IMG/VR virus record: IMGVR_UViG_3300045988_080954
Strand: one strand, 5' to 3'
Length of the DNA stretch: 64,000 nucleotides
Source of the DNA: a virus
Shown here piece by piece: positions 2,435 through 17,112 of this stretch. A program made the translations under genes and the position numbers. The notes under the pieces were generated by a model. The model was not told where the DNA came from. It searched no databases and was given only the letters and a program-made list of their open reading frames with translations. Each line of letters begins with the position of its first letter. Within the stretch, counting starts at the first letter, position 1.

Positions 2435-2463
2435 AAGCACTGGATTTATTCCGGTGCTTTTTT
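2435..2463 (+). terminator. intrinsic terminator between regulator gene and portal
   Basis: GCACTGG (2437-2443) pairs with CCGGTGC (2451-2457) around a 7-nt loop, followed by a T-run at 2458-2463. Confidence 0.7.
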
Positions 2464-2489
2464 CATGCAGAAAAATAGGAGGACAGGCA

Positions 2490-3944
2490 GTGGGGAGAAA
2501 CAAAATTAACTTTGTTGACCTATGCCAAGGCGAGTTTGGCAGAAAAATTGCCTATACTGGCGTAGACCAGATTACTCCCCAGAACGTGGCACAGGTCCTT
2601 TCTGATACAATCGGAATCCATAACAGGAATAGAACCCTGATGGATTATCTTTACAGATATTACAAAGGCGATCAGCCAATTTTATATCGTGAAAAACTTG
2701 TTCGCCCAGAGGTCAACAATAAAGTTGTTGAGAATCATGCCCTTGAAACAGTCAAATTTAAGGCAGGACAGATATACGGAGAACCTATTCAGTATGTCTG
2801 CAAGAAGAAAAAAGCGAGTGAAAAAACAAACGAACAAGTTGACCGGCTTAATGATTATCTGGACGAAGCCAATGCAGACGCCAGAAATATTCAACTTGGG
2901 ATATACCAGAGTGCAGTAGGAACTGCATATAAAGCAATCCTGAGAGAGGATGAATGGACAAAGGATGGAGACTTACCGCCTTTCAGAATATTTATCCCAT
3001 CACCGCAGGATGTATATATTGTTTATTCAAGCGTTACTGGCAAACCAGTGCTTTCCGTCCAGATTTTAAAAGACGAGGACAATCAGCAGTATTACCAGTG
3101 TTATTCTTCCAGACAGTATTTCAAAATTCAAAATGGAGCGGTAACAGAATCTGGAATCAATGGTTTTGGTGGTATTCCTATCATTGAATATCCGAATAAT
3201 CACGACAGACTTTCCGACATCGAAATTGCGATTACAATGTATGATGCAATCAACAAATATCAATCTGACAGACTGAATGGGGTTGAACAGTTCGTACAAG
3301 CTCTGATGAAATTTAAGAACTGTGAGATTGACGAAGCAGAATTTGTAAAAATGATAAAACTCGGTGCTGTATCTGTAAAAGATGTCGGGAATGGAACACA
3401 ATCAGACGTTGACTTAATGACTGCTGAACTAAATCAGTCAGAAAGCCAGGTTGCAAAAGACGATATTTACAACAATATGCTGATTGTAGAAGCAATGCCG
3501 AATCGACAGGGCAATACGGGTGGAGACACAGGAAATGCAGTGTATCTGAGGAATGGTTGGGATTTTGCAGAACGAGACGCAAAATTGGTAGAAGCATTTA
3601 CGAAAGAAGCTGAAAAAGCATCTGCCAGAATTATTTTGAATATCATCCGAAAAACTTCAATGGATGTAAATATTTCAACTAGAGATTTTGATGTAAAAAT
3701 CACCAGAAACCCGACAGATAACATGCTTGTTAAAGCGCAGGCACTGGATTATCTGTTCAAAAATAAAATTCATCCGCTTATTGCGCTGATTACTTGCGGA
3801 TTATTTAGTGATCCGCAAAAAGCATACGAAATGAGCTTGCCATATCTCGGAACCATTTATCCGGAATTGGCAGACCCAGACTCAGAGCTGCAAAAAGCAC
3901 AAAATTTGCTGAATGGCTTTAACAAGGATGTGATTTCAGAATGA
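2490..3944 (+). CDS. portal protein (SPP1 gp6-like)
   Basis: About 484 aa from GTG 2490, with AGGAGG at 2477-2482 and a 7-nt spacer. The 2454 start in the ORF track would lie inside the terminator hairpin. Position after terL fits. Confidence 0.85.
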   Translation: MGRNKINFVDLCQGEFGRKIAYTGVDQITPQNVAQVLSDTIGIHNRNRTLMDYLYRYYKGDQPILYREKLVRPEVNNKVVENHALETVKFKAGQIYGEPIQYVCKKKKASEKTNEQVDRLNDYLDEANADARNIQLGIYQSAVGTAYKAILREDEWTKDGDLPPFRIFIPSPQDVYIVYSSVTGKPVLSVQILKDEDNQQYYQCYSSRQYFKIQNGAVTESGINGFGGIPIIEYPNNHDRLSDIEIAITMYDAINKYQSDRLNGVEQFVQALMKFKNCEIDEAEFVKMIKLGAVSVKDVGNGTQSDVDLMTAELNQSESQVAKDDIYNNMLIVEAMPNRQGNTGGDTGNAVYLRNGWDFAERDAKLVEAFTKEAEKASARIILNIIRKTSMDVNISTRDFDVKITRNPTDNMLVKAQALDYLFKNKIHPLIALITCGLFSDPQKAYEMSLPYLGTIYPELADPDSELQKAQNLLNGFNKDVISE

Positions 3945-4594
3945 GTGTTTCATCATACGATGAATTAAATATCAGACCCCACAATCGCAGAAGTAAACCG
4001 TATAAAGAATATTTCAGCAAAATGTCAATATCAGACAAAGAAAAGCAAGAAAGGATAGCTTTTTCCGAACAAATGGAAGAAGTTGTCCTTTATATTTTAG
4101 CACTGATAGAAACAACCATAGAAAGTGGAGAATCAGATCAAGAATACATTCAGACTCAATTTTATGACAAATATCTGGATGTAATTGCTTCGTATATGCT
4201 TATAGACACATATATCAAGCAATATGTTCTTGACGTGACAAAACAAATTATTGATGCAACATTTGAAAAATTTTCTTCCGAAGATAAAAACATTACTGAT
4301 GATTATTACTTGTCAAATGACCGGGCAATGTTTATTTCAGAATGCGAAGCTAATTCGATACTGAATTACAGACAGTATTCAAAAGCTGTGAAAGCAGGAA
4401 AGACAAAGAAGAAATGGATTGACGTAGGAGACAAAAGGGAACGAAAGACCCACCTTGAAGTTGGAGGAACCACGCTTCCGATTGGTGAACCGTTCTCGGT
4501 TGGAGATAGCTTACTACAATTTCCAAAAGACACCTCGCTAGGAGCTTCGGCAGACGAGATTGTGAACTGTCGGTGCTCAATTCAATACAGTTAA
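3941..4594 (+). CDS. head morphogenesis / minor head protein (Mu F / SPP1 gp7-like)
   Basis: 217 aa with an ATGA overlap with the portal gene. The C-terminal ...ADEIVNCRCS... is typical of that family. Confidence 0.7.
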   Translation: MSVSSYDELNIRPHNRRSKPYKEYFSKMSISDKEKQERIAFSEQMEEVVLYILALIETTIESGESDQEYIQTQFYDKYLDVIASYMLIDTYIKQYVLDVTKQIIDATFEKFSSEDKNITDDYYLSNDRAMFISECEANSILNYRQYSKAVKAGKTKKKWIDVGDKRERKTHLEVGGTTLPIGEPFSVGDSLLQFPKDTSLGASADEIVNCRCSIQYS

Positions 4595-5717: not shown

Positions 5718-6752
5718 ATGCCATTTAATATTTTAGAATCAATCACACAGGAAGAAAGACTTAACTTTTCTCAGGATTTCAGCGTAAAAAGACCGGGCAT
5801 TCTTGACACCATCTTCCCGGATATCAAAACCCAGTTCCTGAAAGCTGAATACTACAGACTTATGGCTGGACAGAGACTGCCAGAGGTAGCATTCGTTCAC
5901 GCTCTTGATACCGAAGCAGAAATTGGCTCCAGACCGGGATTCGAAAAAGTCCTGACTGAAAAGCTTTTTATCAAGAGAAAAATCAATCAGTCTGAGAGAT
6001 TACAGCAGGCAATTGAAAATGGTGTGCCGGATGATGAGAATTTAAAGAAGTTCGTATTTGATGATGCGGCAAACCTGTTTGAAGGCGTTGTTGCCAGAGC
6101 AAATGTTATGAAAGGGCAATTCCTCTCTACTGGCGCAGTAAAAGTCAAAGAGAACAACGTGGATATGAGCATTGATTACGGCGTTCCGTCCAGCGCAAAG
6201 GTAGAAATGACAGACTGGTCTAAACCGGATGCAGATATCATGGGCGATATCCAGAAGATGGTTGCTATCGCAGAGGATAATGGATTTGTGGTAAACAAAG
6301 CCCTGACATCACTTAAAATGATTAATTATATGAGAAACAACACTGCAATGCAGACCGCAGTTTTAGGAGCAGCTAACAAACGTCTTCTGACCAAACAGGA
6401 ACTCGCTAATCTGCTTATGCAAGAATACGGAATCACAATTGATCGTTGCGACGAGAAATTCAAATTCAGAAAAGCAGATGGTTCACTCAAAACAGGAAGA
6501 TACTTCAAAGAGGATGTATTCACTCTGTATGAAGCAGAACCGAACGGTTCATTTGGTACTGGACTCTGGGGCGTAACACCGGAGGAACTTGAATATAGAC
6601 AGTTCATTCAGGAAGAAAATCGCTCCTTCGTAACTCTGTCCATGTGGGCTACACAAGACCCAGTTGCAGTTTGGACTAAAGCATCAGGCATGTTTGTTCC
6701 AGTAGCAGCAAAAGCTAATGGTGGTATCGTAATCGGTACAAAGGGGGAATAA
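5718..6752 (+). CDS. major capsid protein
   Basis: 344 aa with a GGAGG site upstream, in the canonical position. The N-terminus ...FPDIKTQFLKAEYYRL... resembles the capsid protein E-type family. Confidence 0.8.
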   Translation: MPFNILESITQEERLNFSQDFSVKRPGILDTIFPDIKTQFLKAEYYRLMAGQRLPEVAFVHALDTEAEIGSRPGFEKVLTEKLFIKRKINQSERLQQAIENGVPDDENLKKFVFDDAANLFEGVVARANVMKGQFLSTGAVKVKENNVDMSIDYGVPSSAKVEMTDWSKPDADIMGDIQKMVAIAEDNGFVVNKALTSLKMINYMRNNTAMQTAVLGAANKRLLTKQELANLLMQEYGITIDRCDEKFKFRKADGSLKTGRYFKEDVFTLYEAEPNGSFGTGLWGVTPEELEYRQFIQEENRSFVTLSMWATQDPVAVWTKASGMFVPVAAKANGGIVIGTKGE

Positions 6753-6832
6753 ACGGGCATAGTCTTGATGAGAACAGCCAGTCACCATCTGTAGCAAGTA
6801 AACACAAGTATACAGAAAGCGAGCTGTCAAGC

Positions 6833-6937
6833 ATGACAGTGGTTCAGCTGAAACAACTCGCAAGTGACAATGGCTATGCCCTGATATCTACAAACAAGGC
6901 TGGTATTATCTCGGAAATTTTATCTCAGCAAGGGTAG
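6833..6937 (+). CDS. Rho-N/HeH-like small protein, or the C-terminal extension of the capsid protein via a -1 frameshift at 6740-6746
   Basis: MTVVQLKQLASDNGYALISTNKAGIISEILSQQG matches the helix-extended-helix pattern of Rho N-terminal domain proteins. The frame is open back to 6719 with no canonical start before 6833. Confidence 0.45.
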   Translation: MTVVQLKQLASDNGYALISTNKAGIISEILSQQG

Positions 6938-6947
6938 GTGATCTTAA

Positions 6948-7274
6948 ATGAACGAACAGCTTGTAAATGACCTGAAAGAATATCTAGCCGATGATGCGGA
7001 AACTGACGGTATGATTTCTTTGTCTGTAAAACGCGCAATTCGTTCATTCAAAAAGAAGCGCAACTATCCGTCTGGATATACAGAGGAAAAAATCAATACC
7101 GATATGGAATATTGCTATGATTGCATATTTGATCTGGCTCTCTATTTCCTTGTGAAACAGGGAGCCGAGTTCCAAGAATCACATTCTGAAAATTCAGTAA
7201 GTCGAAACTGGGAATCAGAAACGGAAATATATATCAATCATGGCGTTTTTCCATTTGCAGGAAGTTTAATTTAA
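6948..7274 (+). CDS. head-tail connector (gp6-like DNA-packaging/connector protein)
   Basis: 108 aa with N-terminal LVNDLKEYLADDAETDGMISLSVKRAI, as in gp6-like connector families. It follows the capsid gene. Confidence 0.6.
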   Translation: MNEQLVNDLKEYLADDAETDGMISLSVKRAIRSFKKKRNYPSGYTEEKINTDMEYCYDCIFDLALYFLVKQGAEFQESHSENSVSRNWESETEIYINHGVFPFAGSLI

Positions 7275-7386
7275 TAAGATGGTTGGGTCACGTGGCACAG
7301 TATTTTTGTCCTCCCGGAGTGCCGCTGGGTTGCTTATATTCAGTAGGGAAAAGCAAATGTTAAGGGAGTGAAGAAAGGAACTGGCG

Positions 7387-7698
7387 ATGGGATGTGAACA
7401 TGAATGTTTTAATGAACACCGCATAGAAGAATTAGAGAATAGTCTTCGACAGATGCAAGAGAGACAATCCGACCGCCACAAAGAGTTTTATGAGCGTATC
7501 GGGGAACTGGAAAGAAAGACAGCATTAAGTGAGAATGACTTGAACCATATCAAGTCAACTGTGGATGAGATGAATAACAATATAAAGACTCTCATGGCAG
7601 TCCCGGGAAAGCGTTACGATACAATCATTGTATGTGTTATTACATCTATTGTCAGCGCAGTTATCGGTTTTATGTTAAGCGGTATTCTTCCAGTTTGA
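7387..7698 (+). CDS. XhlA-like membrane protein (PBSX lysis-cassette family)
   Basis: 103 aa: a coiled coil, then ...MAVPGKRYDTIIVCVITSIVSAVIGFML. The PGKR(W/Y)D motif plus a C-terminal TM helix match XhlA as I recall it. Confidence 0.65.
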   Translation: MGCEHECFNEHRIEELENSLRQMQERQSDRHKEFYERIGELERKTALSENDLNHIKSTVDEMNNNIKTLMAVPGKRYDTIIVCVITSIVSAVIGFMLSGILPV

Positions 7699-7727
7699 TT
7701 CCACTTGTAAGGGAGGACGGTGGAAAT

Positions 7728-7982
7728 ATGAATTATACAGACTTTTCAGAAGATGAAAGAAAATTTTATTTAAAAGAAGCAGGCTTCGATTCCAGAGAAG
7801 AAAAACTGTTTCGATTACGGGCCTATGGCGAAAAGACACTATGGGAAGCATCTGAACTTATGGGGTATAGTCCAAGAACCATAGACCGAATTAATAAAAG
7901 AATAAAGAAGAAAATTTCTAAAGTTGCCCCGATGTACTGTCGGGGCTTTTCTTTGTATTGTGGCGAAAACGTGGCGAAATAG
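7728..7982 (+). CDS. small HTH protein (sigma region-4 / LuxR-like)
   Basis: 84 aa from ATG 7728 with GGAGG upstream. Contains ...TLWEASELMGYSPRTIDRINKRIKKKI. The last 19 codons overlap a terminator hairpin. Confidence 0.5.
   Translation: MNYTDFSEDERKFYLKEAGFDSREEKLFRLRAYGEKTLWEASELMGYSPRTIDRINKRIKKKISKVAPMYCRGFSLYCGENVAK
7926..7954 (+). terminator. intrinsic terminator
   Basis: GCCCCGA (7926-7932) pairs with TCGGGGC (7940-7946), then TTTTCTTT. Confidence 0.6.
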
Positions 7983-8137
7983 TGACGTTCAAAAACAGAG
8001 TTCCTTCCTATATAATATAATCATAGGAGAAAACACAACGATTATGTTAAGAAACCCTTACGAGGGTATATGGGAAAAGCATCGTTCCATAGATGATATG
8101 GACATGATTCTTGAATCCCGGACAGGAGGAACAGATT

Positions 8138-8635
8138 ATGGCAGGTTATCCGTATTATCCGCAACAGCCAATGATAAACAACCCATACGGACAAATACAG
8201 CCGTATCAGGACAGGCTAGCGCAATTGCAGAATAATTATCAGCAGGCAATGCCTTATGGTCAAATACAGATGCAACAGTTACAGCCGGTTCCACAATCAC
8301 CTATGCTTCAAGGACAGATGGTGGATGGAATTGATACTGTAAAGGCTAAAGATGTGGATATGTCCGGCAATCCTGTTTACTATCCAAAAACAGACGGAAC
8401 TGAAATTTACAGAAAACAGCTTCAATCCGATGGAAGGAGCAGGATTTTTGTTTACCGACTCGTAAATCCAGATGAACAGCAATCTAAGCAAGATGAAAAG
8501 CAGATTGACATTGAAGCAATGTTTAATCAGCTTCGGAATGATGTTTGTTCGGAGATTTCTGAAATAAAGAGTATGTTTCCGACACAGATGTCGGGGACAC
8601 CAGAGTCTAAGCAGAACGGAGGTAGGCAGAGATGA
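8138..8635 (+). CDS. P/Q/Y-rich protein, function unknown
   Basis: 165 aa from ATG 8138 with AGGAGGA at 8124-8130. The N-terminus is MAGYPYYPQQPMINNPYGQIQPYQ...; the C-terminal half looks globular. Confidence 0.5.
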   Translation: MAGYPYYPQQPMINNPYGQIQPYQDRLAQLQNNYQQAMPYGQIQMQQLQPVPQSPMLQGQMVDGIDTVKAKDVDMSGNPVYYPKTDGTEIYRKQLQSDGRSRIFVYRLVNPDEQQSKQDEKQIDIEAMFNQLRNDVCSEISEIKSMFPTQMSGTPESKQNGGRQR

Positions 8636-8877
8636 CATTCAATCCAAACGCCATAATGAAAAAGCAATTTGAGAAAATGATTTCTCAGAGGTTCGGAAGT
8701 GTTGACAACATGATGAACGATATGAGTAAATTTGCAGGAAATAATCCAACATTGAAGAATGCGTTGGATTTATACAAAAAAGGTGATACGGACCAGTTAC
8801 ATCAAATACAGCAAAATGTATTTAATGAAAAGCACTTATCACCAGATGGAATTATCCAGAAATTCCTTGGATTATAA
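8632..8877 (+). CDS. hypothetical protein
   Basis: 81 aa with an ATGA overlap with the upstream gene and GGAGG upstream. No family recognised. Confidence 0.45.
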   Translation: MTFNPNAIMKKQFEKMISQRFGSVDNMMNDMSKFAGNNPTLKNALDLYKKGDTDQLHQIQQNVFNEKHLSPDGIIQKFLGL

Positions 8878-8973
8878 CACTTCCCCACAATTGGGTGATT
8901 AAAAATCGCTACAATTCGGGACGACAGCCGCGGATGTCTCCTATTGTAAATAAAATTTAAGGAGACTAAAAAC

Positions 8974-9783
8974 ATGATGAATGGTTCAAATTACAGTCTT
9001 AGTGACATTGCTGCCGCTACAGGCTCTAATAATCGCGCCAATGATATGTGGGGCGGTGATGGCTTTTCACTTATCTGGCTCGTCCTGATCTTTGCCATCT
9101 TTGGATGGGGAGGTTTTGGCGGCTGGGGCGGCGGCTTCGGCGGTAATGGTGGAAACGGTGCGAACGGTGCCGGATTCCAGGGATGGGCTACCCGTGCTGA
9201 TATCAACGAGGGGTTTGCTCTTAATGATATCCAGAACGGCATCAGAGGCATTCAGCAAGGTATTTGTGATAGCACATATGCTCTTAACAATACCATGCAA
9301 AGTGGCTTCAATGGCGTGAACGTTGGAATGCTTCAGGGCTTCAACGGCGTTCAGCAGGCAATTAACGCTGATACAGTGGCTAATATGCAGAACACCAATA
9401 CATTACAGTCTCAGTTAGCAAACTGTTGCTGTGAAACAAGAGAGGCTATCCAGGGCATCAACTACAACATGGCTACCAACACTTGTGCTCTCCAGAACAC
9501 AATGAACAATAACACCAGAGACCTTCTGGAAAACCAGAATAGCAATACAAGAGCAATCCTTGATTTCCTGACTCAGGATAAGATTGCAACATTACAGGCA
9601 GAAAATACTGATCTGAAACGTGCTGCATCTCAGGATCGCCAGTCCGCATTGCTTACAACTGCTATGGCTTCGCAGACTCAGCAGTTAATCAATGCAATTA
9701 ATCCGGCAGCCATCCCGGCATACGTTGTTCCTAATCCGAATACCTATTACGGCGGATGCGGATGCAACAGTGGATGCTGCTAA
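8974..9783 (+). CDS. membrane-anchored Gly-rich, N/Q-rich, Cys-tailed protein
   Basis: 269 aa with AAGGAG upstream. It has a TM helix FSLIWLVLIFAIFGW, a GGFGGWGGGFGGNGGNGANGAG tract, a CCC triplet and a C-terminal YYGGCGCNSGCC. Confidence 0.6.
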   Translation: MMNGSNYSLSDIAAATGSNNRANDMWGGDGFSLIWLVLIFAIFGWGGFGGWGGGFGGNGGNGANGAGFQGWATRADINEGFALNDIQNGIRGIQQGICDSTYALNNTMQSGFNGVNVGMLQGFNGVQQAINADTVANMQNTNTLQSQLANCCCETREAIQGINYNMATNTCALQNTMNNNTRDLLENQNSNTRAILDFLTQDKIATLQAENTDLKRAASQDRQSALLTTAMASQTQQLINAINPAAIPAYVVPNPNTYYGGCGCNSGCC

Positions 9784-9813
9784 GTAACTCACCCTTAGAG
9801 GTTGACTAATTCT

Positions 9814-9845
9814 AAGAGGTGGGTTACGGCTCACCTCTTATTTTG
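9814..9845 (+). terminator. intrinsic terminator
   Basis: AAGAGGTG (9814-9821) pairs with CACCTCTT (9832-9839), then ATTTTG. Confidence 0.6.
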
Positions 9846-9861
9846 ATTGAGAGGTAAAAAT

Positions 9862-10287
9862 ATGAGTTGTAAGAATGTTTGTAAACTTTGCAGTCATCTT
9901 GTAATCAGTCAAGCTGTTGCGTTTACAGGTGGTAATCTTGTAATCACACTCCCAGCAGGCAGTTACAACAATGGAGAGAAATATTGTATTGTTGTTGCAC
10001 AAAGTATACCGGAAGCCACCACAATTACCGCCCCGGTAATGATTCAAATAGGAACAGGAACAACTTTGTATCCGCTAGAGAATCGTTGCTGTGCACAGGT
10101 TACGGCTTGCGGAATAAGAACCAGAACGAAGTACGCAACCAGAGTAGCTACAAGTGCAACTGGTGGAGTATTCAAGATGTTAGGAAATCCAGCTTGTAGT
10201 CCGAGTAACAATTTAACAGCAATTAATGGTGCAGCCCCAACGACAGACACACCTGTTACACAGGCTGCCAGAAAGGGGGCAATGTAA
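9862..10287 (+). CDS. Cys-rich beta-rich small protein, family not recognised
   Basis: 141 aa from ATG 9862. It has MSCKNVCKLCSH at the N-terminus, then NRCCAQVTACG and NPACS (8 Cys by my count). Confidence 0.55.
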   Translation: MSCKNVCKLCSHLVISQAVAFTGGNLVITLPAGSYNNGEKYCIVVAQSIPEATTITAPVMIQIGTGTTLYPLENRCCAQVTACGIRTRTKYATRVATSATGGVFKMLGNPACSPSNNLTAINGAAPTTDTPVTQAARKGAM

Positions 10288-10919
10288 TGCATAAAGTTGC
10301 AATGGAAATGGGAAAATGGGCTATGGAGAAAGCTAAAGCACATGGCTTTGATACTCTCAACGCTCAAGACTGGGACGATTTGAAAGACTGCATGGAAGCT
10401 GTAAAGTGTGCGATTTGTGCAGATAAGGATTACAGAATCGTAGAAGCTATGGACGAATGCGAGCAGGAAGAGAAATATCTTGGACGTATGGGATATGACA
10501 GATATCGTTATTCCAATGGCAGATTTGCCCCAAAAGGCAGAGGAAGCCGCATGGGATATATTCCTTATCTTCACGCACAGGATGATGACTGGATGAATGA
10601 ATATCTGAATAATCCAGAATTTGAACGCAATATGTACCGCATGGGATATCACCCAGAATATTCGGACAGGAATATGGGGAATGATGGCATGAATCGTCAG
10701 CAATCCAGATATGGTGAAACCTACGACAGATACAGCGAGAATCGCAGACATTACCATGATTCCAAAGACGCTGAGTCCAAGAGAAAAATGGATGATTCCA
10801 TGAAAGAGTATACAGAAGATATCATCCGCAATATGAAAGAAATGTGGGATGATGCAGACGCATCAATCAGACAGCAGATGAAAACTGACTTGACACGTTT
10901 TATACAGCAGATGAATTGA
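10287..10919 (+). CDS. Tyr/Arg/Met/Asp-rich protein with three RMGY repeats
   Basis: 210 aa with a start overlapping the upstream stop. Contains GRMGYDRYRY, SRMGYIPY and YRMGYHPEY, and an N-terminal 4-Cys segment. Confidence 0.55.
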   Translation: MHKVAMEMGKWAMEKAKAHGFDTLNAQDWDDLKDCMEAVKCAICADKDYRIVEAMDECEQEEKYLGRMGYDRYRYSNGRFAPKGRGSRMGYIPYLHAQDDDWMNEYLNNPEFERNMYRMGYHPEYSDRNMGNDGMNRQQSRYGETYDRYSENRRHYHDSKDAESKRKMDDSMKEYTEDIIRNMKEMWDDADASIRQQMKTDLTRFIQQMN

Positions 10920-10935
10920 ATATGAAATGAATTTT

Positions 10936-10968
10936 GCCCTTGTTACAGGAATGTAGCAGGGGCTTTTT
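10936..10968 (+). terminator. intrinsic terminator
   Basis: GCCCTTG (10936-10942) pairs with CAGGGGC (10957-10963, one G-U), then TTTTT. Confidence 0.55.
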
Positions 10969-10987
10969 GGTTATGGAGGTACATAAT

Positions 10988-11149
10988 ATGTCGAGAAAAA
11001 AAGCGGAAGTCAAAATTAAAATGATTTGTGAGAAATGCGGAAAACCACAGAAACCAAGTGCTGACAAATCAACAACTAATTGGAATGTATATGACTGTCA
11101 TGAAAAATGTGAATGCGGTGGAAAATTCGTAATGAAATTCGAGGATTGA
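10988..11149 (+). CDS. zinc-ribbon-like small protein
   Basis: 53 aa from ATG 10988 with GGAGG upstream. Contains CEKCG...CHEKCECGG. Confidence 0.45.
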   Translation: MSRKKAEVKIKMICEKCGKPQKPSADKSTTNWNVYDCHEKCECGGKFVMKFED

Positions 11150-11151
11150 TT

Positions 11152-11502
11152 ATGGAAAATTTGACTGTAAATATTTTAGGAACCGAGTACAAAATATATT
11201 TCAGGAATGAAAAAGACGACGATTTACTTGATGGAAAAGGCAGAGATGGATACACGGATATGTCCGCGCACGAAATTATAGTGTGTAACAAAAAAGATGA
11301 TTGTGAATTAAGAGATTACGAAAATTGGAAGAAAAACATTCTACGTCATGAAATTGTTCATGCTTTTTTATTTGAAAGTGGACTTGATTCTTCGTCTGCC
11401 AATTTTTATGGAGCATGGGCTACGAACGAAGAAATGGTTGATTGGTTTGCAATTCAATCTCCAAAGATTTTTAAAGTATTCCAAGAACTTGATTTAATTT
11501 GA
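11152..11502 (+). CDS. HExxH metallopeptidase-like protein (ImmA/IrrE- or SprT-like)
   Basis: 116 aa containing ...ILRHEIVHAFLFESG. Confidence 0.5.
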   Translation: MENLTVNILGTEYKIYFRNEKDDDLLDGKGRDGYTDMSAHEIIVCNKKDDCELRDYENWKKNILRHEIVHAFLFESGLDSSSANFYGAWATNEEMVDWFAIQSPKIFKVFQELDLI

Positions 11503-11520
11503 AAAGGATGGTGATAAACC

Positions 11521-11907
11521 ATGCTAAGACAATTTTATATGAACGGAGACCTATGGAGAGTGCAGTTTGTATCTCCGCACGACAGCGTGTTAATTGACCG
11601 TACAGGCAATAGAACGCTTGGAGTATCGGATTATTCAACCCACGTTATTTCAATCGCAAATAACTTGTATGGAGAACTTCTGAACCGTGTATTTATTCAT
11701 GAGTTAGGGCATTGTGTGATGTTCAGTTATGGTCTATTACCAGAACTTCATCGTATGGTTAAGAAACGGTATTGGGTGGACGCGGAGGAATTTGTATGTA
11801 ATATTCTGGCAGACTATGGACAGTTTGTTATTGGCACGGCCAGAGATATCTTAGGAAACCAGTTCACATATGTGGCTCCTATCGGGGCAGAAAGGATGAT
11901 TGCATAG
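11521..11907 (+). CDS. second HExxH metallopeptidase-like protein
   Basis: 128 aa containing ...VFIHELGHCVMFSYG. It is in tandem with the previous gene. Confidence 0.5.
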   Translation: MLRQFYMNGDLWRVQFVSPHDSVLIDRTGNRTLGVSDYSTHVISIANNLYGELLNRVFIHELGHCVMFSYGLLPELHRMVKKRYWVDAEEFVCNILADYGQFVIGTARDILGNQFTYVAPIGAERMIA

Positions 11908-12150
11908 ATGGCAAAAGCAGAAAACACAATTATTTTTGATGGCATTCAGTACAATCCCGGTGATGAATTGCCGGATTTAGGTAGTTGGGTATGTACAGAT
12001 GCAAGAGGTATGGTTCGTGATTACGAGGGACTTTCAAAAGACGTATCAAAGCTCCCGCATTATGTAGAGAGCGGTTCTTCGGCGCTGTGCCTTGATACTT
12101 CTGAATTATACGAATATCACAAACCTACCGATACATGGTACAAACTGTAA
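11908..12150 (+). CDS. hypothetical protein
   Basis: 80 aa, starting immediately after the upstream stop, with GAAAGGA upstream. Confidence 0.4.
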   Translation: MAKAENTIIFDGIQYNPGDELPDLGSWVCTDARGMVRDYEGLSKDVSKLPHYVESGSSALCLDTSELYEYHKPTDTWYKL

Positions 12151-12163
12151 AGGAGAAGCGCAT

Positions 12164-13462
12164 ATGGCATTAACAGCAAAGAAAGTATATGCAATATTAA
12201 AACGCCAGATTTCCGATATGGAAGCAAAATTAAATAGCCCTGTAAGATACAGAGGTACAGTTGCGACTGCTGATTTGCTTCCATTAAATCCAGATATTGG
12301 CGATATGTACAATATCGAGTCTAAGTCGGTCTACGGCGAAGCAGGAATGAATGTGGCATGGAACGGCGTAGTTTGGGACACTATGGGCGCTCCAATTGAT
12401 ATGTCACTGTATCTCACAAAAGAAGAAGCAGAGACGGTAATACAAAGATTAGTTACGGAATATTTTGAAAAGAATCCAGTCAAGCCTGGAGCCACGACAG
12501 AACAGGCACAGCAGATCGAGCAGAACAAGACAGACATTGCTTCACTGAAAACGGAAACTGGTTCACTGAAGGAAGATATATCCACCAAAATCACCAAATT
12601 CTATGCAAGTTCACAAGGTGAAACTCATATTACTGATTCTGACAATGGCAAGATTCAAGATATGATGATATATGGCAAATCATCACAGGATGGAACACCA
12701 ACGCCAGAGAATCCAGTTGAGATTAAAAGCGTGGTGAATCCAACGGTGAAGGTGTCAAACGAAGATGGAACACAATTTAAGACCGTCACTCTCCCATACA
12801 CATTAAATGCAATCCCTGTAAGTTCAGGTGGTAACGTCACAATCGACGGACAGCAGTATATTGCGGATTATGTGGATGTGGAACGTGGGAAACGAGTACA
12901 GAGAATTATTAAGTATAAAATAACAGGTGATGAAAACATTTATGAACACGCAAGTGGTTGGATATATTGCGATACCGATTTAAAACTGGTTTCTCAAATA
13001 TGTGCAACTAATATTGCGAAAACAATAACTGATCAATATATTTTATCGGGCAATTATATCAGATCAGGAGCAACTGGTTTCTATTTTACACATAATGATA
13101 TATTCACTGATGTTAATGCGTTTAAAAACTATGTGAAAAATAACGATGTGTATGTTTATACTGCATTATCAACACCCGAAGAAATCGACCTCACCACCGA
13201 AGAAATTGCCGCATTCAAAGCACTTACAACATATTACCCGACTACAAATATCAGCGTCAATTCCGAACAGCTTGACGGATATACAATATTCAATTATCCA
13301 ATTTCAATGGAGAACGGTTGGAACTATGTAAAACAGCAGATAGGCGATACGAGGGATTATATCTATGATATGGACGCACGTACTCAGGATACTGATTTAC
13401 AGGCGGCAGAAGCCTACGTTAACAGCGAATACGCAGTAGCACTTACAGAATTGGAGGTATGA
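12164..13462 (+). CDS. tail-fibre / receptor-binding-like protein
   Basis: 432 aa from ATG 12164. The N-terminal YRGTVATADLLPLNPDIGDMYNIE...NVAWNGVVWD motif is one I associate with Firmicute phage fibre proteins. It is followed by an XkdX-like gene. Confidence 0.55.
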   Translation: MALTAKKVYAILKRQISDMEAKLNSPVRYRGTVATADLLPLNPDIGDMYNIESKSVYGEAGMNVAWNGVVWDTMGAPIDMSLYLTKEEAETVIQRLVTEYFEKNPVKPGATTEQAQQIEQNKTDIASLKTETGSLKEDISTKITKFYASSQGETHITDSDNGKIQDMMIYGKSSQDGTPTPENPVEIKSVVNPTVKVSNEDGTQFKTVTLPYTLNAIPVSSGGNVTIDGQQYIADYVDVERGKRVQRIIKYKITGDENIYEHASGWIYCDTDLKLVSQICATNIAKTITDQYILSGNYIRSGATGFYFTHNDIFTDVNAFKNYVKNNDVYVYTALSTPEEIDLTTEEIAAFKALTTYYPTTNISVNSEQLDGYTIFNYPISMENGWNYVKQQIGDTRDYIYDMDARTQDTDLQAAEAYVNSEYAVALTELEV

Positions 13463-13464
13463 TT

Positions 13465-13605
13465 ATGTTATACAGAACATTATTAAAACTTAAAAAAAGA
13501 AACGGACTGACAGACGATTTAAAAAATAAGATTGATATTTTCTTCGCAACGGGCAGGATTACCGAGGAACAGTATAATGAGCTGATGGATGCTTTAGTTA
13601 ATTAA
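13465..13605 (+). CDS. XkdX-like small protein
   Basis: 46 aa, MLYRTLLKLKKRNGLTDDLKNKIDIFFATGRITEEQYNELMDALVN. The ...G.IT.EQY..L pattern and the position after a fibre gene match PBSX. Confidence 0.5.
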   Translation: MLYRTLLKLKKRNGLTDDLKNKIDIFFATGRITEEQYNELMDALVN

Positions 13606-13675
13606 AAATCTCTCATAAATTCGCTAAAATATCTATTCAGATAGAGCGAACAGTGCTATAATCACTATAACAGAA

Positions 13676-13743
13676 CACAAAAAGAGGAGCTGGACTCCCG
13701 TCTACCAAACAAAAAGTCCAACTCCAAGCACCACAAAGGGTAC
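13676..13743 (-). ncRNA. candidate cis-antisense small RNA opposite the recombinase 5' leader
   Basis: Minus-strand promoter TTCACA (13778-13773), 17 nt, TATAAT (13755-13750), with TG at -15/-14. The hairpin 13725-13715/13696-13686 pairs best on the minus RNA (G-U) and is followed by TCTTTTTGTG. Confidence 0.4.
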
Positions 13744-13799
13744 GGGTATATTATAGCACAGTACTCTCCCTTTGTGAACCCAAAAGGAGGGTATTTTTT

Positions 13800-14795
13800 A
13801 TGAGAGAAAAATTCGTGAATGGGTTCATGACAAATCTGTATGAAGAAATTCCGGAAGAATATCTTGAAACAGTCAGAAACAAACTGGCGTTGTATGTAAA
13901 TGATTTTGATATCAGTCAAAGAGAAACAGCAGTTGTAAAGTATACTGGATATTTGCCAGATTTTTACAAAACTTACATTGTAAGCAGGAAGATCGAGGGT
14001 TTGAGTAAAAAGACTCTCGAACTCTACAATCTTTATCTGGATGATTTCTTTTTCACAGTCAATAAAAAAGCTGAAGATATTACCGCAAATGACATTCGTG
14101 TATATCTGTATAATGCTCAGGAGAGCAGAGGGTTGAGTAATCGAACGCTTGATAGTAGAAGAACTGCCATACACGCTTTCTTCGAGTGGGCTGCAAACGA
14201 AGGATATATAGGCAAGAACCCGTGCAGAGTTATCAAAAATATCAAGTATGAACGTGTAGAGAAGAAACCTCTGACAGATATGGAACTGGAAAGAATCAGA
14301 CAGGTATGCGAAACGGTACGCGAAAAGGCAATGATTGAATTCTTATACAGTACAGGAGCCAGAGTGACAGAAGCATGCGCTGTCAAGAAACAAGATGTGG
14401 ATTTTCAAAATGGCGAAGTAATTGTTTTAGGAAAAGGAAATAAGCATAGAAAAGTATATCTAAATGCTCGCAGCAAACTTCTTTTAGGACAGTACCTTGC
14501 ATTCAGAAATGATGATTCGGAATATCTTTTTGTAAGTGAAAGAAAACCCCACAACGTATTAAAAAAAGAAGCAATTGAAAGAATTGTACGAATAATCGGT
14601 GAGCGGTCAGAACTGGACAGGCCTCTGACACCGCATCTATTTAGGCATACTCTTGCGACTCTTATGCTTCAAAGAGGTACGCCGATTACTGAGGTGCAGA
14701 AGATTCTTGGACATGTCAACATTAACACGACAATGATCTATGCAAAGGTATCTGATGAAGATGTAAAAGTGTCTCATATGAAATATGCAATATAA
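13800..14795 (+). CDS. tyrosine recombinase (XerC/XerD-phage integrase family)
   Basis: 331 aa with AGGAGG upstream. Contains ...STGARVTEA..., ...HLFRHTLAT..., ...LGHVNINTTMIYAKV (R, H-x-x-R, H and Y catalytic signature). Confidence 0.9.
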   Translation: MREKFVNGFMTNLYEEIPEEYLETVRNKLALYVNDFDISQRETAVVKYTGYLPDFYKTYIVSRKIEGLSKKTLELYNLYLDDFFFTVNKKAEDITANDIRVYLYNAQESRGLSNRTLDSRRTAIHAFFEWAANEGYIGKNPCRVIKNIKYERVEKKPLTDMELERIRQVCETVREKAMIEFLYSTGARVTEACAVKKQDVDFQNGEVIVLGKGNKHRKVYLNARSKLLLGQYLAFRNDDSEYLFVSERKPHNVLKKEAIERIVRIIGERSELDRPLTPHLFRHTLATLMLQRGTPITEVQKILGHVNINTTMIYAKVSDEDVKVSHMKYAI

Positions 14796-14818
14796 GATTT
14801 TTGAAGGGAGAAATCGCC

Positions 14819-15217
14819 ATGAGAGGATTAAAACGCCAAAAACAGATAGTATATTGGTCAAGGGCAACTGAAGACCTTGACGGGATAGACACAATCAAAA
14901 CGTACCAAAAGCCAGAATTGCATCACCTCTCCGTGTCTGCGACCGCCGGAACGCCAGAGGAATTATCCGCCGGTTATATCCCGGACTACGACAGATACAT
15001 CACGAACTTTGACCGTGACTTCAAGCCGCAGACCGCCGATGTATTCTGGATAGACTGCAAGCCGGAACTGAATGAAGCAGGCGAACTTATCTTAGGCGAA
15101 GATGGAGAGCCTACAGTCCCACCAGATTACCGTCTAAAAAAGATTCTTGATACCCAGAAAGGGAATGTGGCACGATATGGTATCAAGTATATAGGAGATG
15201 GTTCAGATGGCGAATAA
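14819..15217 (+). CDS. head-tail joining module protein (family not assigned)
   Basis: 132 aa from ATG 14819 with GAAGGGAG upstream. It is the first ORF after the island, in the position expected for a head-closure/adaptor gene. Confidence 0.4.
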   Translation: MRGLKRQKQIVYWSRATEDLDGIDTIKTYQKPELHHLSVSATAGTPEELSAGYIPDYDRYITNFDRDFKPQTADVFWIDCKPELNEAGELILGEDGEPTVPPDYRLKKILDTQKGNVARYGIKYIGDGSDGE

Positions 15218-15725
15218 GACTATCAAAATGGAATTGTCGCATAAATCTATACAAGACACGATAAAACAGCTCAGAGCGTATCAGAAGTCACTTGCAAGTA
15301 AGAATGAGGAATTTGTCCGCAGGCTAGCAGAACTTGGAATCCCGGTCATAGATGAAAACATAGCATTGGCACAAGGCGATTCTGACAAAAACCATAACAC
15401 CTATATCAGAATCAATAACTTTGGCGGCTATTCTCAGGCGACGCTTGTGTGCGAAGGCTCTGACCTCCTGTTCATTGAGTTCGGTTCGGGTATTTCGTAT
15501 AACACTCCGGCAGGAACTAGCCCGCATCCTAAGGGGCAAGATTTTGGTTACACAATCGGTTCATACGGACAAGGGAATGGAAAGAATGAATCGTGGGTTT
15601 ATTATTCCGATTCTGGCGAATGGGTACGTTCTTACGGTACTGAAGCCACCATGCCAGTTTATAAGGCAAGCGTGGAGATTATGCAAAACATCAGAAAAAT
15701 TGCAAATGAAGTGTTTGGTTCCTAA
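15207..15725 (+). CDS. neck/tail-completion module protein (possibly HK97 gp10-like)
   Basis: 172 aa from ATG 15207; the 15198 ATG abuts the AGGAG site. The call is positional. Confidence 0.4.
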   Translation: MANKTIKMELSHKSIQDTIKQLRAYQKSLASKNEEFVRRLAELGIPVIDENIALAQGDSDKNHNTYIRINNFGGYSQATLVCEGSDLLFIEFGSGISYNTPAGTSPHPKGQDFGYTIGSYGQGNGKNESWVYYSDSGEWVRSYGTEATMPVYKASVEIMQNIRKIANEVFGS

Positions 15726-15770
15726 AAACTTCATACTGAATCATACCTGCATATTTGATATACTATACCA
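15723..15770 (+). promoter_or_regulatory. conserved intercistronic box, copy B (extended -10 TGATATACT at 15756-15764)
   Basis: Starts at a TAA stop. 15729-15746 and 15751-15762 are identical to copy A. Confidence 0.5.
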
Positions 15771-15777
15771 TATAAAA

Positions 15778-15805
15778 GCATCTACCTGAGCGGTGGGTGC
15801 TTTTT
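15778..15805 (+). terminator. intrinsic terminator
   Basis: GCATCTACC (15778-15786) pairs with GGTGGGTGC (15792-15800, two G-U), then TTTTT. Confidence 0.6.
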
Positions 15806-15824
15806 CTTATAACGAGGTGATTCT

Positions 15825-16232
15825 ATGCCAGACACGATCAGCAACCCGGTATCAGAAGTATTTTCTAGGTGGAGTAAAGACATTCAATCAACAGTCGGCA
15901 AAGGCAATTTTTCCATGGAGAAAAGCCAGACAATAGCATCTGGCAAAACAAAATACGCCAGATTATTCATGATGGGGAATCCTACGCAGTCAACAAGTCT
16001 CGAAGGTCACGAATGCGCAACAGTTCTTTCGTTTCAAACGGAAAGTTATGCATCTGGGACAAAGGCTTTATCGACTGCATACGAAATCGACAGCAAAAGT
16101 CATCAGGCCATGATTTCAATGGGCTTTCGCCGGACATACGGACCGGAAGAAGTTGCAAACTCCGAAAAGAGTTTCAAACGAATCATAAGCCGGTACAGCA
16201 GAATTTACACCGGGCAATTATTGGAAGCGTAA
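15825..16232 (+). CDS. tail-completion / minor structural protein (family not assigned)
   Basis: 135 aa with GAGGTGA upstream. The call is positional. Confidence 0.4.
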   Translation: MPDTISNPVSEVFSRWSKDIQSTVGKGNFSMEKSQTIASGKTKYARLFMMGNPTQSTSLEGHECATVLSFQTESYASGTKALSTAYEIDSKSHQAMISMGFRRTYGPEEVANSEKSFKRIISRYSRIYTGQLLEA

Positions 16233-16275
16233 CAGCTTCTATTTTTTTATACCAAAAAGAAAGGAGAGTGTCCCT

Positions 16276-16488
16276 ATGAGTAAAGATAAATTACAATGGC
16301 TGAAAGCTGCGGGAATCAGAGCTGTTAAGACAATTGCTCAGACAGCAGTTGCGACAATCGGAACCGCAACAGTCCTTGGAAGCGTTGACTGGAAGATGGT
16401 CGTATCCGCGTCCGTTCTTTCCGGCGTTTTATCCTTGCTTACATCTGTAGCAGGGCTTCCAGAACTGAAAACAGGCACAGATGAATAG
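16276..16488 (+). CDS. holin-like membrane protein
   Basis: 70 aa, ...AAGIRAVKTIAQTAVATIGTATVLGSVDWKMVVSASVLSGVLSLLTSVAGLPE. It has two hydrophobic helices and a pattern seen in Firmicute phage holin annotations. Confidence 0.55.
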   Translation: MSKDKLQWLKAAGIRAVKTIAQTAVATIGTATVLGSVDWKMVVSASVLSGVLSLLTSVAGLPELKTGTDE

Positions 16489-16533
16489 AAAGGACGGTGA
16501 TCCTTTTATCTCCCGGATGCAGGGTTACGCATC

Positions 16534-16554
16534 AGAGCCATGTGGCTCTTTTTT
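16534..16554 (+). terminator. intrinsic terminator
   Basis: AGAGCC, ATGT loop, GGCTCT, then TTTTT. Confidence 0.65.
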
Positions 16555-16594
16555 ATTGTAATTTTATAGCTGAAAAAGCAGAAAGGAGCCGAAT

Positions 16595-17089
16595 ATGGCA
16601 GACAAAGGAAATATAGCAGGCGTAAGTACCGTTGGTTCGCTTACTGGATATGCAGTTGAAACAACAGCAGGTACTAAACCGACAACATTTAAACTTCTTC
16701 ACAGAATCAATGCTTCTGATGAAATCAAAATTGACGTAGAAACAATCGACGCTTCCGCACTTGAAGATGAAGTCGAAAGAACTATTGCAGGACGTGGTTC
16801 TACAGGTGGTACATTTAACGTAACTGTAAACGTAACTGATGAAACTATCACTGAATGGGAAACCTTAATCAGCGAGTACAAAACAGGAAAAGCCGACGGA
16901 AAATCTATGTGGTACGAAGAATACTTCCCTTCTCTTAAAAAAGCATTCTTCACAAAAATCGAGCCGCCGACAATCATTCCTAAACCAGCGAGAGATCAGA
17001 ACGGCCTGTTAACCGTCGAAATGTCTCTTACTATTAATGAATATGTCGGCCCGAGTGAAGCAGTAGTTCCAACTGACAGCGGCCTTTAA
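16595..17089 (+). CDS. major tail protein
   Basis: 164 aa with AAAGGAG upstream. It lies upstream of the chaperone pair and tape measure and has a T/G/V-rich beta-type sequence. Confidence 0.7.
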   Translation: MADKGNIAGVSTVGSLTGYAVETTAGTKPTTFKLLHRINASDEIKIDVETIDASALEDEVERTIAGRGSTGGTFNVTVNVTDETITEWETLISEYKTGKADGKSMWYEEYFPSLKKAFFTKIEPPTIIPKPARDQNGLLTVEMSLTINEYVGPSEAVVPTDSGL

Positions 17090-17112
17090 ACACATTTGGG
17101 AGGACAAATAAT

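Follow-up and report, generated by a model that had tools for sequence, protein, structure and literature searches.

A portable five-gene operon in phages of gut Clostridia may build a membrane-anchored, cysteine-linked structure

We analyzed a 64,000-nucleotide stretch of viral DNA (IMG/VR record IMGVR_UViG_3300045988_080954; hereafter, the window) and find at positions 8138-10919, on the + strand, an operon of five genes, A-B-C-D-E. As judged from sequence comparisons, this module is a portable accessory unit that moves between many phages of gut Clostridia. No recognizable enzyme is encoded, and the module most likely builds a structure. Our tentative proposal, held with somewhat less than even confidence, is a membrane-anchored, Cys-linked assembly of stalk and knob. 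The genes and neighboring sites are as follows.

7387..7698, + strand: XhlA-like tail-anchored membrane protein, 103 aa (phrog_937 'hemolysin', E=1.3e-12)
7728..7982, + strand: small sigma-70 region-4-like HTH protein (r4), 84 aa (NCBIfam sigma70-ECF region 4, E=2e-7)
7926..7946, + strand: terminator-like hairpin at the 3' end of the r4 gene (9-bp stem with 6 GC pairs, T-run)
7988..8016, + strand: sigma-70-like promoter candidate for A-B-C (TTCAAA-17-TATAAT, 10/12 consensus matches)
8138..8635, + strand: gene A, 165 aa (phrog_21718, E=1.9e-20; in 98% of loci; dN/dS 0.061)
8632..8877, + strand: gene B, 81 aa (in 87% of loci; dN/dS 0.050)
8910..8954, + strand: conserved non-coding element upstream of C (TACAAT/TACATAA box, spacer, and TTGTAAATAAA at 8944-8954)
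8974..9783, + strand: gene C, 269 aa (phrog_16490, E=1.2e-68; dN/dS 0.063)
9813..9840, + strand: terminator-like hairpin between C and D (12-bp stem, T-run)
9862..10287, + strand: gene D, type D1, 141 aa (D1 or D2 in 98% of loci; dN/dS 0.095)
10287..10919, + strand: gene E, 210 aa (in 94% of loci; dN/dS 0.040)
10936..10963, + strand: terminator-like hairpin closing the operon (12-bp stem with 6 GC pairs, T-run)

A-E are real genes. Every one has a ribosome-binding site, and all are under purifying selection, with dN/dS of 0.04 to 0.10 among close relatives, compared to 0.041 for the major capsid gene. An initial annotation had singled out four proteins, and these open reading frames were found at their coordinates with the sequence features described, those at 8138 and 9862 starting with ATG; the fifth gene, B, had been overlooked. 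When z-scores are taken against the 51 other proteins of the window, the unusual composition that had been reported is borne out for Gln and Pro in A (z=7.5 and 3.8), Gly and Asn in C (z=4.1 and 5.8), Cys in D (5.7%, z=2.3, the fourth highest in the window), and Met, Asp, and Arg in E (z=4.8, 3.1, and 2.5), whereas the reported enrichment in Tyr is weak (just z=1.4 in E). As the initial annotation had stated, no curated family fits the module proteins of the window, the sources here being Pfam, NCBIfam, PADLOC, and PDB sequences, and none is recognizable as a core virion or replication protein. No enzyme or defense family was found among them in Pfam, NCBIfam, or PADLOC. In a PHROG search, A, C, E, and the alternative D type, D2, matched phrogs 21718, 16490, 28802, and 20016, respectively, all of unknown function, and D1 and B had no match. 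Sequence reading and hydropathy maxima reveal no evident N-terminal hydrophobic (signal-like) segment in A, B, D, or E.

The C protein, the hallmark of the module, is predicted from its sequence to be a single-pass membrane protein with ~160 residues of helix. A short N-terminal tail leads into a TM helix (residues 30 to 44), which is the only strong hydrophobic segment among A-E, as the initial annotation had it for C, and is slightly acidic on both flanks. There follow a Gly/aromatic tract (GGFGGWGGGFGGNGGNG) built of GGF, GGW, and GGN units, not G-X-Y triplets, then long helices, and finally a Cys/Gly/Asn tail that ends in ...YYGGCGCNSGCC. Helices 83-126 and 134-242 carry the conserved C98 and the CCC triplet at 151-153. 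Although C is not unusual in its total Cys content (z=0.9), the Cys positions are conserved and lie in clusters, and the Cys-rich tail is present in nearly all lineages. The core had been described as repetitive and N/Q-rich; the enrichment in Asn stands, and C contains the 20-mer with the lowest entropy in the window, but a long alpha-helical region describes the core better, with a 3.6-residue hydrophobic periodicity that is equaled by 9 of 500 shuffles. At least 7,990 protein-database clusters belong to the family. As the secondary structure of C is taken from an AF2 model with a pLDDT of 48, and the model for D has a pLDDT of 65, statements on the folds of both proteins are tentative.

The slot of gene D is occupied by two unrelated types, D1 or D2, which alternate among loci and show no profile relation to each other; D2 is not in the window. 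D1 begins MSCKNVC and D2 MAEF or MIEL, and the D1 of the window starts MSCKNVCKLCSH and contains NRCCAQVTAC. The layout of D1 is an N-terminal Cys segment (C3, C7, and C10), an eight-strand beta domain with strands spanning residues 12 to 106, and a disordered tail, with further Cys residues assigned to the beta domain at C42, C76-C77, C83, and C112. The AF2 model is all-beta, in agreement with the beta-rich character first noted. In alignments, C3, C10, C42, and C77 are invariant, and C7, C76, and C112 are nearly so. With 5,080 clusters, D1 forms a closed family by sequence, its members being essentially always stand-alone proteins of 120 to 170 aa (381 representatives). A Foldseek search of BFVD with the pLDDT-65 model retrieves knob regions of fiber proteins (E=2e-5 to 1e-3, TMq ~0.45), the partners being hyaluronidase tail fibers, T7-type fibers, collagen-repeat proteins, and adhesin stalks. 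Neither sequence profiles nor Foldseek gave a significant PDB match for D1, the best Foldseek match being T4 gp9 (E=0.028, TMq 0.26). For D2, 2 of 10 members match Pfam BclA_C (PF18573), the C1q/TNF-like knob domain found in the exosporium nap protein of Bacillus, at 30.3 and 24.0 bits (E=4e-7 and 4e-5), below the gathering cut-off of 38 bits. The alignment covers profile positions 13 to 127 of 128. The D1 of the window has no BclA_C match at E<=1.

The other three proteins are of low complexity or small. A consists of a Gln/Pro/Tyr-rich low-complexity N terminus of the PYYPQQP/PYGQIQ type, a small conserved domain, and a helix. B is rich in Asn, Gln, and Met, and its start overlaps the A stop (ATGA); no family was found in Pfam, PHROG, or NCBIfam, and PADLOC gave weak PD-T4-6 matches only. 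In E, whose start overlaps the D stop (TAATG), helical ends flank a low-complexity middle rich in Met, Arg, Asp, and Tyr, with RMGY motifs at residues 67, 88, and 118. The E family comprises 1,477 clusters, none of them named, and its homologues match phrog_28802. Neither A nor E has a Pfam or PDB match, and scanning 10 to 11 homologues of each against Pfam and NCBIfam yielded nothing relevant.

The operon is bracketed by sites which suggest that it is transcribed as a unit of its own. The hairpin at the end of the r4 gene is predicted to shield it from upstream transcription, and a terminator-like site before A, scored over ~310 nt, is found in 30 of 64 loci, compared to 4% of random 135-nt windows. 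The corresponding figures are 30 of 66 loci after C and 17 of 56 after E, again against 4% of random windows. From its sequence, the hairpin between C and D is a probable attenuator which keeps C above D-E, and in most loci examined a hairpin directly precedes the ribosome-binding site of D. At other loci, the position of the promoter candidate is taken by a T-run and then ATGCGAAAAT. The non-coding element upstream of C is conserved across divergent loci, its spacer being a short hairpin in other loci. Its motif has 151 matches in 1.9 Mb, 32 of which lie just upstream of C, and the element has no Rfam match. The r4 protein, the true ATG of which is at 7728, is a candidate regulator of the module by sequence (Pfam Sigma70_r4, E=1.6e-3 in the window and 23.7 bits for the homologue at locus L010), and its gene is at most 6 kb away from C in 72% of a set of 47 diverse loci. 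The XhlA-like protein, with a hydrophobic segment at residues 80 to 94, is kept in 80 of 80 close relatives, and at many loci an Xhl gene or a different small TM (sTM) gene is found upstream of the module.

Among 47 diverse loci with enough flanking sequence, the order A-B-C-D-E does not vary, with A and D present in 98%, E in 94%, and B in 87%. The module itself occupies four kinds of genomic position in unrelated phage backbones: between portal/minor-capsid and scaffold/MCP genes, after the lysis genes, beside integrase/attP, and after MCP and adaptor. About half of the sampled loci place it in the head-gene cluster (~24 between minor-capsid and scaffold genes). In the window it is found on the late strand, with the head-tail adaptor on one side and the tail genes on the other, and in this lineage and its close relatives it is adjoined by receptor-binding-type genes and a retroelement (reverse transcriptase). 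At locus L016, the module starts ~290 bp inside attL, at a tRNA-Met gene, which places it at the prophage edge; in L016-L018, integrase, ArdA, AntA, and MazG adjoin it, and the structural genes are far away. Some relatives with an MCP at least 97% identical, represented by metagenomic contigs, lack B-E, C-E, or D-E, and in L057 the B-C allele is swapped. The host genomes are Clostridia, including Hungatella and Lachnospiraceae, with one Lachnospira genome; no homologues turned up in host chromosomes outside prophages. A divergent copy is carried by the cultured Butyrivibrio phage Ceridwen (B. fibrisolvens), which lacks an integrase and for which only a lytic cycle has been seen.

These features recall morons, the insulated accessory transcription units described for lambdoid and HK97-like phages. 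Like them, the module combines a promoter-like site of its own, called by consensus match, with flanking terminator-like hairpins, its presence varies among close relatives, and its position varies, extending to the att-proximal prophage edge. Morons usually comprise one or two genes, however, whereas the module is five strictly co-linear genes with a frequent regulator-like partner and often lies inside the head-gene cluster.

We propose the following working. Transcription would start at the module's own promoter, downstream of the terminator and possibly assisted by the upstream r4 protein. A-B and C would be made in excess, with the hairpin after C attenuating read-through into D-E, and A/B and D/E would be translationally coupled pairs. 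C would be inserted by its one N-terminal helix into the cytoplasmic membrane of the host and would carry a flexible Gly/aromatic linker, the ~160-residue helical stalk, and the Cys/Gly tail. D, whether D1 or the BclA_C-like D2, would be a stand-alone beta-sandwich knob with Cys clusters of its own that joins the stalk. As the tail of C does not change with the type of D in the lineages compared and no informative C-D fusion was found, the contact itself is unsupported. Under suitable conditions, disulfide or metal bridges between the clustered Cys residues could fix the assembly in place, and the low-complexity A and E would serve as matrix or as multivalent binding partners. Whereas the sequences show the anatomy, conservation, mobility, and occasional absence of the operon and the architectures of its proteins, we infer that C enters the membrane and associates with D, that the assembly is cross-linked, and that it acts at the level of the cell. 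The assembly would be part of the infected or lysogenic cell and not of the core virion, and its benefit to the phage would be independent of virion architecture.

A serious rival, if a somewhat unlikely one, is an accessory virion appendage (head, neck, or side fiber), dispensable and exchangeable between phages in the manner of side tail fibers and neck-passage structures. C would then be a coiled-coil shaft with a hydrophobic N-terminal anchor, D the distal knob, and A, B, and E adaptors or chaperones. The initial annotation had named an unrecognized virion appendage as its alternative, and this is kept because the D1 model resembles fiber knobs and about half of the loci lie in the head-gene cluster. 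This placement, together with the receptor-binding-type and retroelement neighbors, fits an appendage, as do the position in the window, the presence of the module in Ceridwen, and the swapping of D alleles as in receptor-binding modules. D2 resembles BclA_C, a fold class which also tips fibers, and a crAss-like phage gene with the annotation 'outer capsid protein/viral fiber' is a weak match to C. The likeness of D1 to parts of hyaluronidase, T7-type, and collagen-repeat fibers, however, is seen in the predicted structure only: no module protein falls in a structural PHROG category, and no sequence homology to tail, fiber, or baseplate families was found in Pfam or PHROG, such homology having been named beforehand as what would speak against the spore-layer idea discussed below. 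D1 is essentially always stand-alone, and the strongly hydrophobic TM-like segment of C is unusual for a tailed-phage virion protein. The regulator-like gene, promoter-like site, and bracketing hairpins also argue against an appendage, as does the position in L016-L018. Since the module occurs in unrelated structural backbones, any docking site on the virion would need to be generic.

The membrane protein C could also point to a conflict or egress system acting in superinfection exclusion, receptor masking, or lysis-associated envelope remodeling, in which C would serve as a stalk anchored in the membrane and D would bind in the manner of a lectin. The insulated organization, the moron-typical positions beside attP or after the lysis genes, and the accompanying membrane proteins, including the XhlA-like one, are consistent with such a system; allelic replacement of B-C and D suggests diversification, and C weakly matches the coiled-coil tail of ZorA in PADLOC (E=0.004). 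Yet dN/dS within alleles is low, there is no effector or enzyme domain and no significant PADLOC match, and five co-conserved non-enzymatic genes are unlike known exclusion proteins. The layout of C, an N-terminal TM followed by two hinged helices with Cys residues, recalls i-spanins. Lachnospiraceae and other Clostridia hosts are monoderm, however, and reading of the N termini reveals no signal sequence with a subsequent lipobox Cys in any module protein, so that a lipoprotein partner is not evident. Head-cluster placement is also left unexplained, and we consider a conflict or egress role unlikely.

Prophage-made material resembling spore coat or exosporium, deposited on the forespore surface during host sporulation by mother-cell assembly and Cys/Tyr cross-links, is close to what the initial annotation had envisaged. 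Its resemblance to cross-linked spore surfaces holds for the near full-length, sub-threshold BclA_C match of D2 and for the layout of D1, but fails for coat homology and for Tyr, which is mildly raised at most. Spore coat families (e.g., GerQ, CotF-type, and CotJ) were not matched by module proteins or A/E homologues in Pfam or NCBIfam. GerQ was also tried as an identity and failed on the profile test. S-ENA subunits form inter-subunit disulfides through Cys residues of the N-terminal connector and the core (10.1101/2020.08.21.260141), and Ena1A/B and D1, as modeled, are both small eight-strand beta-sandwiches with no evident signal sequence, a short Cys-bearing N-terminal segment, and core Cys. 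D1, however, has no DUF3992 match in Pfam, no PDB profile match, and no Ena among the 50 PDB Foldseek matches listed, and we know of no counterpart of the TM stalk protein C or of low-complexity A/E in ena loci. F-ENA subunits carry the N-terminal hook M-P-psi-psi-x-P-psi, and L-BclA, the tip fibrilla of endospore appendages, joins a Cys-rich N-terminal connector with a CC motif to a C1q knob (PMC12357932). The hook is absent from the N termini of D1 and D2, and DUF4183 was not matched in Pfam. D proteins likewise pair Cys clusters with a beta-sandwich, but unlike BclA, D lacks a collagen-like G-X-Y stalk within its 141 aa, and the Gly tract of C offers no substitute. D also shows no apparent exosporium leader. 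Soluble proteins without an evident signal-like segment would suit assembly in the mother-cell cytoplasm, and the prophage-edge position in L016 and the Clostridia hosts would suit it as well. Against this, the promoter candidate is sigma-70-like by consensus match, no chromosomal non-phage homologues were found, and homologous modules, phage-borne, occur in Ceridwen and in the Lachnospira genome. Butyrivibrio and Lachnospira do not, to our knowledge, sporulate. As a homologous module is thus carried by a lytic phage of Butyrivibrio, the spore coat serves as an analogy only, and we hold a role in sporulation to be very unlikely.

The same analogy allows a broader, improbable reading, in which the module would be a portable kit for disulfide-locked fibers or matrix in phages of gut Clostridia, akin to endospore appendages with BclA-type tips though unrelated to them in sequence. 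D might then polymerize or cap through its Cys connector, with C as the membrane-anchored stalk and A/E as matrix; the structure would harden once exposed to oxygen and might shield or tether virions, lysogens, or spores on their way from host to host. If so, phages would encode a class of self-assembling surface structure not known before.

With C encoded on more than 500 IMG/VR stretches, and with at least ~8,000 protein clusters at 90% identity for C, ~5,000 for D1, and ~1,500 for E, the module is among the commoner uncharacterized gene sets of human and animal gut Clostridia phages. Strict gene order, strong purifying selection, mobility between backbones, and the lack of an enzyme domain suggest a structural device useful to many phages. 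Knowing its role would annotate thousands of 'hypothetical' genes and could show in what way gut phages modify the surface, survival, or transmission of their hosts or their own particles. With a divergent copy available in the cultured phage Ceridwen, the question is directly testable.

The five genes A to E at window 8138-10919, referred to here as the module, form a widespread, strictly co-linear phage unit that is more substantial than first described. The initial annotation listed four proteins; a fifth gene, B (8632-8877), is part of the set. All five are genuine genes under constraint: each has a ribosome-binding site, A/B and D/E overlap at ATGA and TAATG, respectively, and a comparison of relatives whose capsid genes are nearly identical gives dN/dS values of 0.04-0.10 for the five genes, comparable to 0.041 for the major capsid protein (MCP). 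Every sequence feature noted in that annotation is present. The unusual composition reported there also stands for A (Gln, z=7.5; Pro, z=3.8), C (Gly, z=4.1; Asn, z=5.8; it also holds the window's lowest-complexity 20-mer), D (5.7% Cys, z=2.3) and E (enriched in Met, Asp and Arg), with 51 other window proteins as reference, except that the Tyr content of E is only slightly raised (z=1.4). An ORF of 237 aa lies antisense to D and E (10044-10757, minus strand); it is most likely no gene, because purifying selection on the plus-strand frames is strong.

At 90% clustering, database relatives number at least 7,990 for C, 5,080 for D1 (the type of D protein carried by the window) and 1,477 for E. 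The few that bear a source name are all "hypothetical" and come mostly from gut metagenomes and Caudoviricetes bins, while genome matches fall in Lachnospira, Eubacterium, Hungatella, Ruminococcus and unnamed Lachnospiraceae and Clostridia; prophages of Lachnospira intestinalis CLA-AA-H89B and Eubacterium sp. 14-2 are among the carriers. A profile HMM was built for each component and ORFs were labelled in 69 diverse loci, with rates taken from the 47 that have at least 3.5 kb on each side of C. The order A-B-C-D-E is constant in 47/47. A and D are each present in 98% (D2, the other protein type found in the D slot, in 81% and D1 in 17%), E in 94% and B in 87%; r4, a small sigma-70 region-4-like gene lying just upstream of A in the window, occurs in 72%.

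The phage backbones that host the module are unrelated to the window phage, and its location varies. In about 24 loci it lies between the portal and minor capsid genes on one side and the scaffold and MCP genes on the other; in another large group it follows the lysis genes, beside reverse-strand genes; in L017 and L018 it follows integrase and attP; and in the window lineage it comes after the MCP and adaptor genes. In locus L016 the 3' end of a tRNA-Met gene is the site of the prophage, whose module starts about 290 bp inside attL. Within the window lineage (MCP at least 97% identical), L030 is without B-E, L040 without C-E and L044 without D-E. In L057 (12937-14698), identity to the window is 95-98% for A, D and E but only 28% for the B allele and 43% for the C allele, a pattern that points to recombination within the operon. 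The varied positions, partial losses and allele swap together indicate that the module is accessory, exchangeable and mosaic.

A further small gene, Pep (~125 aa, phrog_3754, unknown function), occurs along with the module, on its upstream or downstream side, in 72% of the 47 loci; examples are L007 7524-7904, L010 7131-7499 and L002 5665-6042, with 47 further matches and none in the window. Its conserved DC...GH...DtwDs pattern suggests a papain-like Cys-His-Asp triad, and the product may act as a peptidase or, in the manner of a transglutaminase, cross-link module proteins.

Known families offer little purchase on these proteins. A, B and E have no match in Pfam, NCBIfam, PADLOC or PDB, the PHROGs of A and E are of unknown function, and PADLOC returned only weak coiled-coil noise for the module proteins. 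PDB sequence searches with C and D as single sequences and with A, C, D1, D2 and E profiles gave nothing significant, nor did Foldseek of the D1 model against the PDB. Two candidate readings, a GerQ-like A and a CotC/U-like E, were dropped when Pfam scans of the window proteins and of 10-11 homologues of each, as well as PDB profile searches, came back empty. No description of the module was found in the literature searched.

Protein C has a short acidic N-terminal tail, one hydrophobic helix (30-44), a Gly/aromatic tract, two predicted long helices (83-126 and 134-242) in which C98 and CCC151-153 are invariant, and a disordered tail enriched in Cys, Gly and Asn. Nearly all lineages keep this tail; the structural model of C is poor (pLDDT 48). 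A YjcZ-like identity for the TM/Gly segment was considered, and NCBIfam gave no match. In D1, the invariant C3 and C10 and the nearly invariant C7 all precede a predicted 8-strand beta domain (pLDDT 65); C42 and C77 are likewise invariant, and C76 and C112 nearly so. By sequence the D1 family is closed: its 381 representatives are small proteins that stand alone, and long matches that might have been Rosetta-stone fusions are chimeras or deletions. Among predicted viral structures outside its own family, the pLDDT-65 model matches segments of hyaluronidase and T7-type tail fibres, of collagen-repeat proteins and of adhesin stalks (E=2e-5 to 1e-3, TMq ~0.45). D2 fills the slot more often than D1, and two of its members match the BclA_C profile along its full length (E=4e-7 and 4e-5), under the Pfam cut-off. 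Distant homology of D1 and D2 was rejected, as hhalign gives it a probability of 0.1 and finds a single match of 8 columns (RCCAQV/GCCATV); here they count as two alternative occupants of the slot. As a possible sign of C-D contact we looked for C tails that co-vary with D type, and found none.

The operon carries the following signals.

7926-7946, terminator-like hairpin at the end of the r4 gene
7988-8016, sigma-70-like site upstream of A (TTCAAA-17-TATAAT), a candidate promoter
8910-8954, conserved non-coding element 5' of C, made up of a TACATAA box, a short hairpin and then TTGTAAATAAA
9813-9840, hairpin between C and D
10936-10963, strong hairpin 3' of E

Across divergent loci, terminator-like sites occur before A in 30/64 (a stretch of ~310 nt), after C in 30/66 and after E in 17/56, compared with 24/600 random 135-nt windows. 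The TTGTAAATAAA copy in the window (8944-8954) lies about 20 nt ahead of the C start codon, and the element occupies the same position in L001, L005, L007, L008, L010-L012, L014, L016, L188 and L195. Of 151 motif matches in 1.9 Mb, 32 are just upstream of C, a ~25-fold enrichment. The hairpin stems differ in sequence and keep their pairing (AACCG/CGGTT, AACTT/AAGTT, AAATC/GATTT), an apparent co-variation judged by eye; RNAalifold yielded no consensus structure for the element because loop lengths vary, and an Rfam scan of window 6700-14000, element included, gave no match. The r4 protein could bind this element, or the element could serve in RNA processing or attenuation. A 139-aa gene directly 3' of the large terminase gene (1962-2381), with a weak DUF1492 match in relatives, also weakly matches our r4 profile (E=1.8e-6) and may encode a late-gene regulator related to r4.

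On these observations the module is best read as an accessory operon, portable and insulated, whose products build a non-enzymatic assembly centred on a membrane-anchored stalk (C) and a knob (D). The clustered cysteines would lock the assembly covalently or through metal, and the low-complexity proteins would be its partners; we infer that C inserts into the membrane, that C and D touch and that the proteins cross-link. The nearest structural logic that we met in published work is that of endospore appendages: in S-ENA, small beta-sandwich subunits are linked by disulfides via an N-terminal Cys connector (10.1101/2020.08.21.260141), and in L-BclA tips a C1q knob goes together with a connector rich in Cys (PMC12357932). 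Tests of family membership placed the module proteins outside F-ENA, S-ENA and the BclA family. The original proposal of spore-coat- or exosporium-like material survives only as an analogy: homology to coat families was not found, the candidate promoter is sigma-70-like, and a homologous module is carried by Butyrivibrio phage Ceridwen (MN882553.2, about 22864-26124, QHJ73766-QHJ73771), which lacks an integrase and is seen only in the lytic cycle. Its Butyrivibrio host is not known to sporulate.

An accessory fibre of the virion is a serious alternative to the stalk-and-knob assembly. The module is often embedded in head clusters, the D model resembles a fibre knob, and in close relatives receptor-binding-type proteins and a reverse transcriptase lie beside the module. 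However, C has a TM-like segment, and the module carries its own regulatory signals, adjoins integrase and early genes in L016-L018, and is portable across unrelated structural modules. We file it as a phage accessory, moron-type unit with a BclA/fibre-knob-class component, outside every family tested.

The window itself is a gut siphophage-type genome with the following landmarks.

223-1965, large terminase
2454-3944, portal
3941-4594, head-morphogenesis protein
5718-6752, MCP
18055-23031, 1,658-aa ORF, the presumed tape measure given its size and position
29255-30721, endolysin-like protein

The 108-aa gene that follows the MCP (6948-7274) probably encodes a head-tail adaptor, judging by a reading of its sequence. 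The region from this pair to the next connector-like gene (14801-) is a non-structural island with genes for an XhlA-like membrane protein, r4, the module, two small HExxH proteins, a protein of 433 aa and a tyrosine recombinase (13800-14795). Close relatives of the window phage are all free metagenomic contigs of 60-80 kb, and as a host clue the MCP offers only a 63% relative in one horse-gut MAG.

The adjacent HExxH genes (11113-11502 and 11521-11907; phrog_1233) show weak SprT-like/DUF6782 similarity; homologues lie a few kb downstream of the module in the unrelated L005, L007 and L011, and their presence varies among close relatives. The 433-aa ORF (12161-13462) looks like the product of a deletion that fused two genes: its residues 2-176 correspond to one ORF of relatives such as L035 and residues 207-433 to another ~0.9 kb downstream, and the DNA between them is gone from the window. 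In the close relatives L234-L241 (~12660-20313) the stretch from module to recombinase holds genes for a variable protein of 598-793 aa (DUF6273 or GDSL/SGNH hydrolase), another of 587 aa and a 391-aa reverse transcriptase (RVT_1), along with small ORFs, and resembles a diversity-generating retroelement together with its targets. The window's island showed no recognisable reverse transcriptase.

The window's tyrosine recombinase is placed among head-tail genes, and it may not be a prophage integrase, since none of the contigs retrieved shows the lineage integrated. In L187 and L189, of a different phage lineage, the head-gene cluster itself contains an integrase gene, which sits between the minor-capsid gene and Pep and immediately upstream of the module. 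A tyrosine recombinase thus neighbours the module in three lineages (window, L017/L018 and L187/L189), and the two may sometimes move together.
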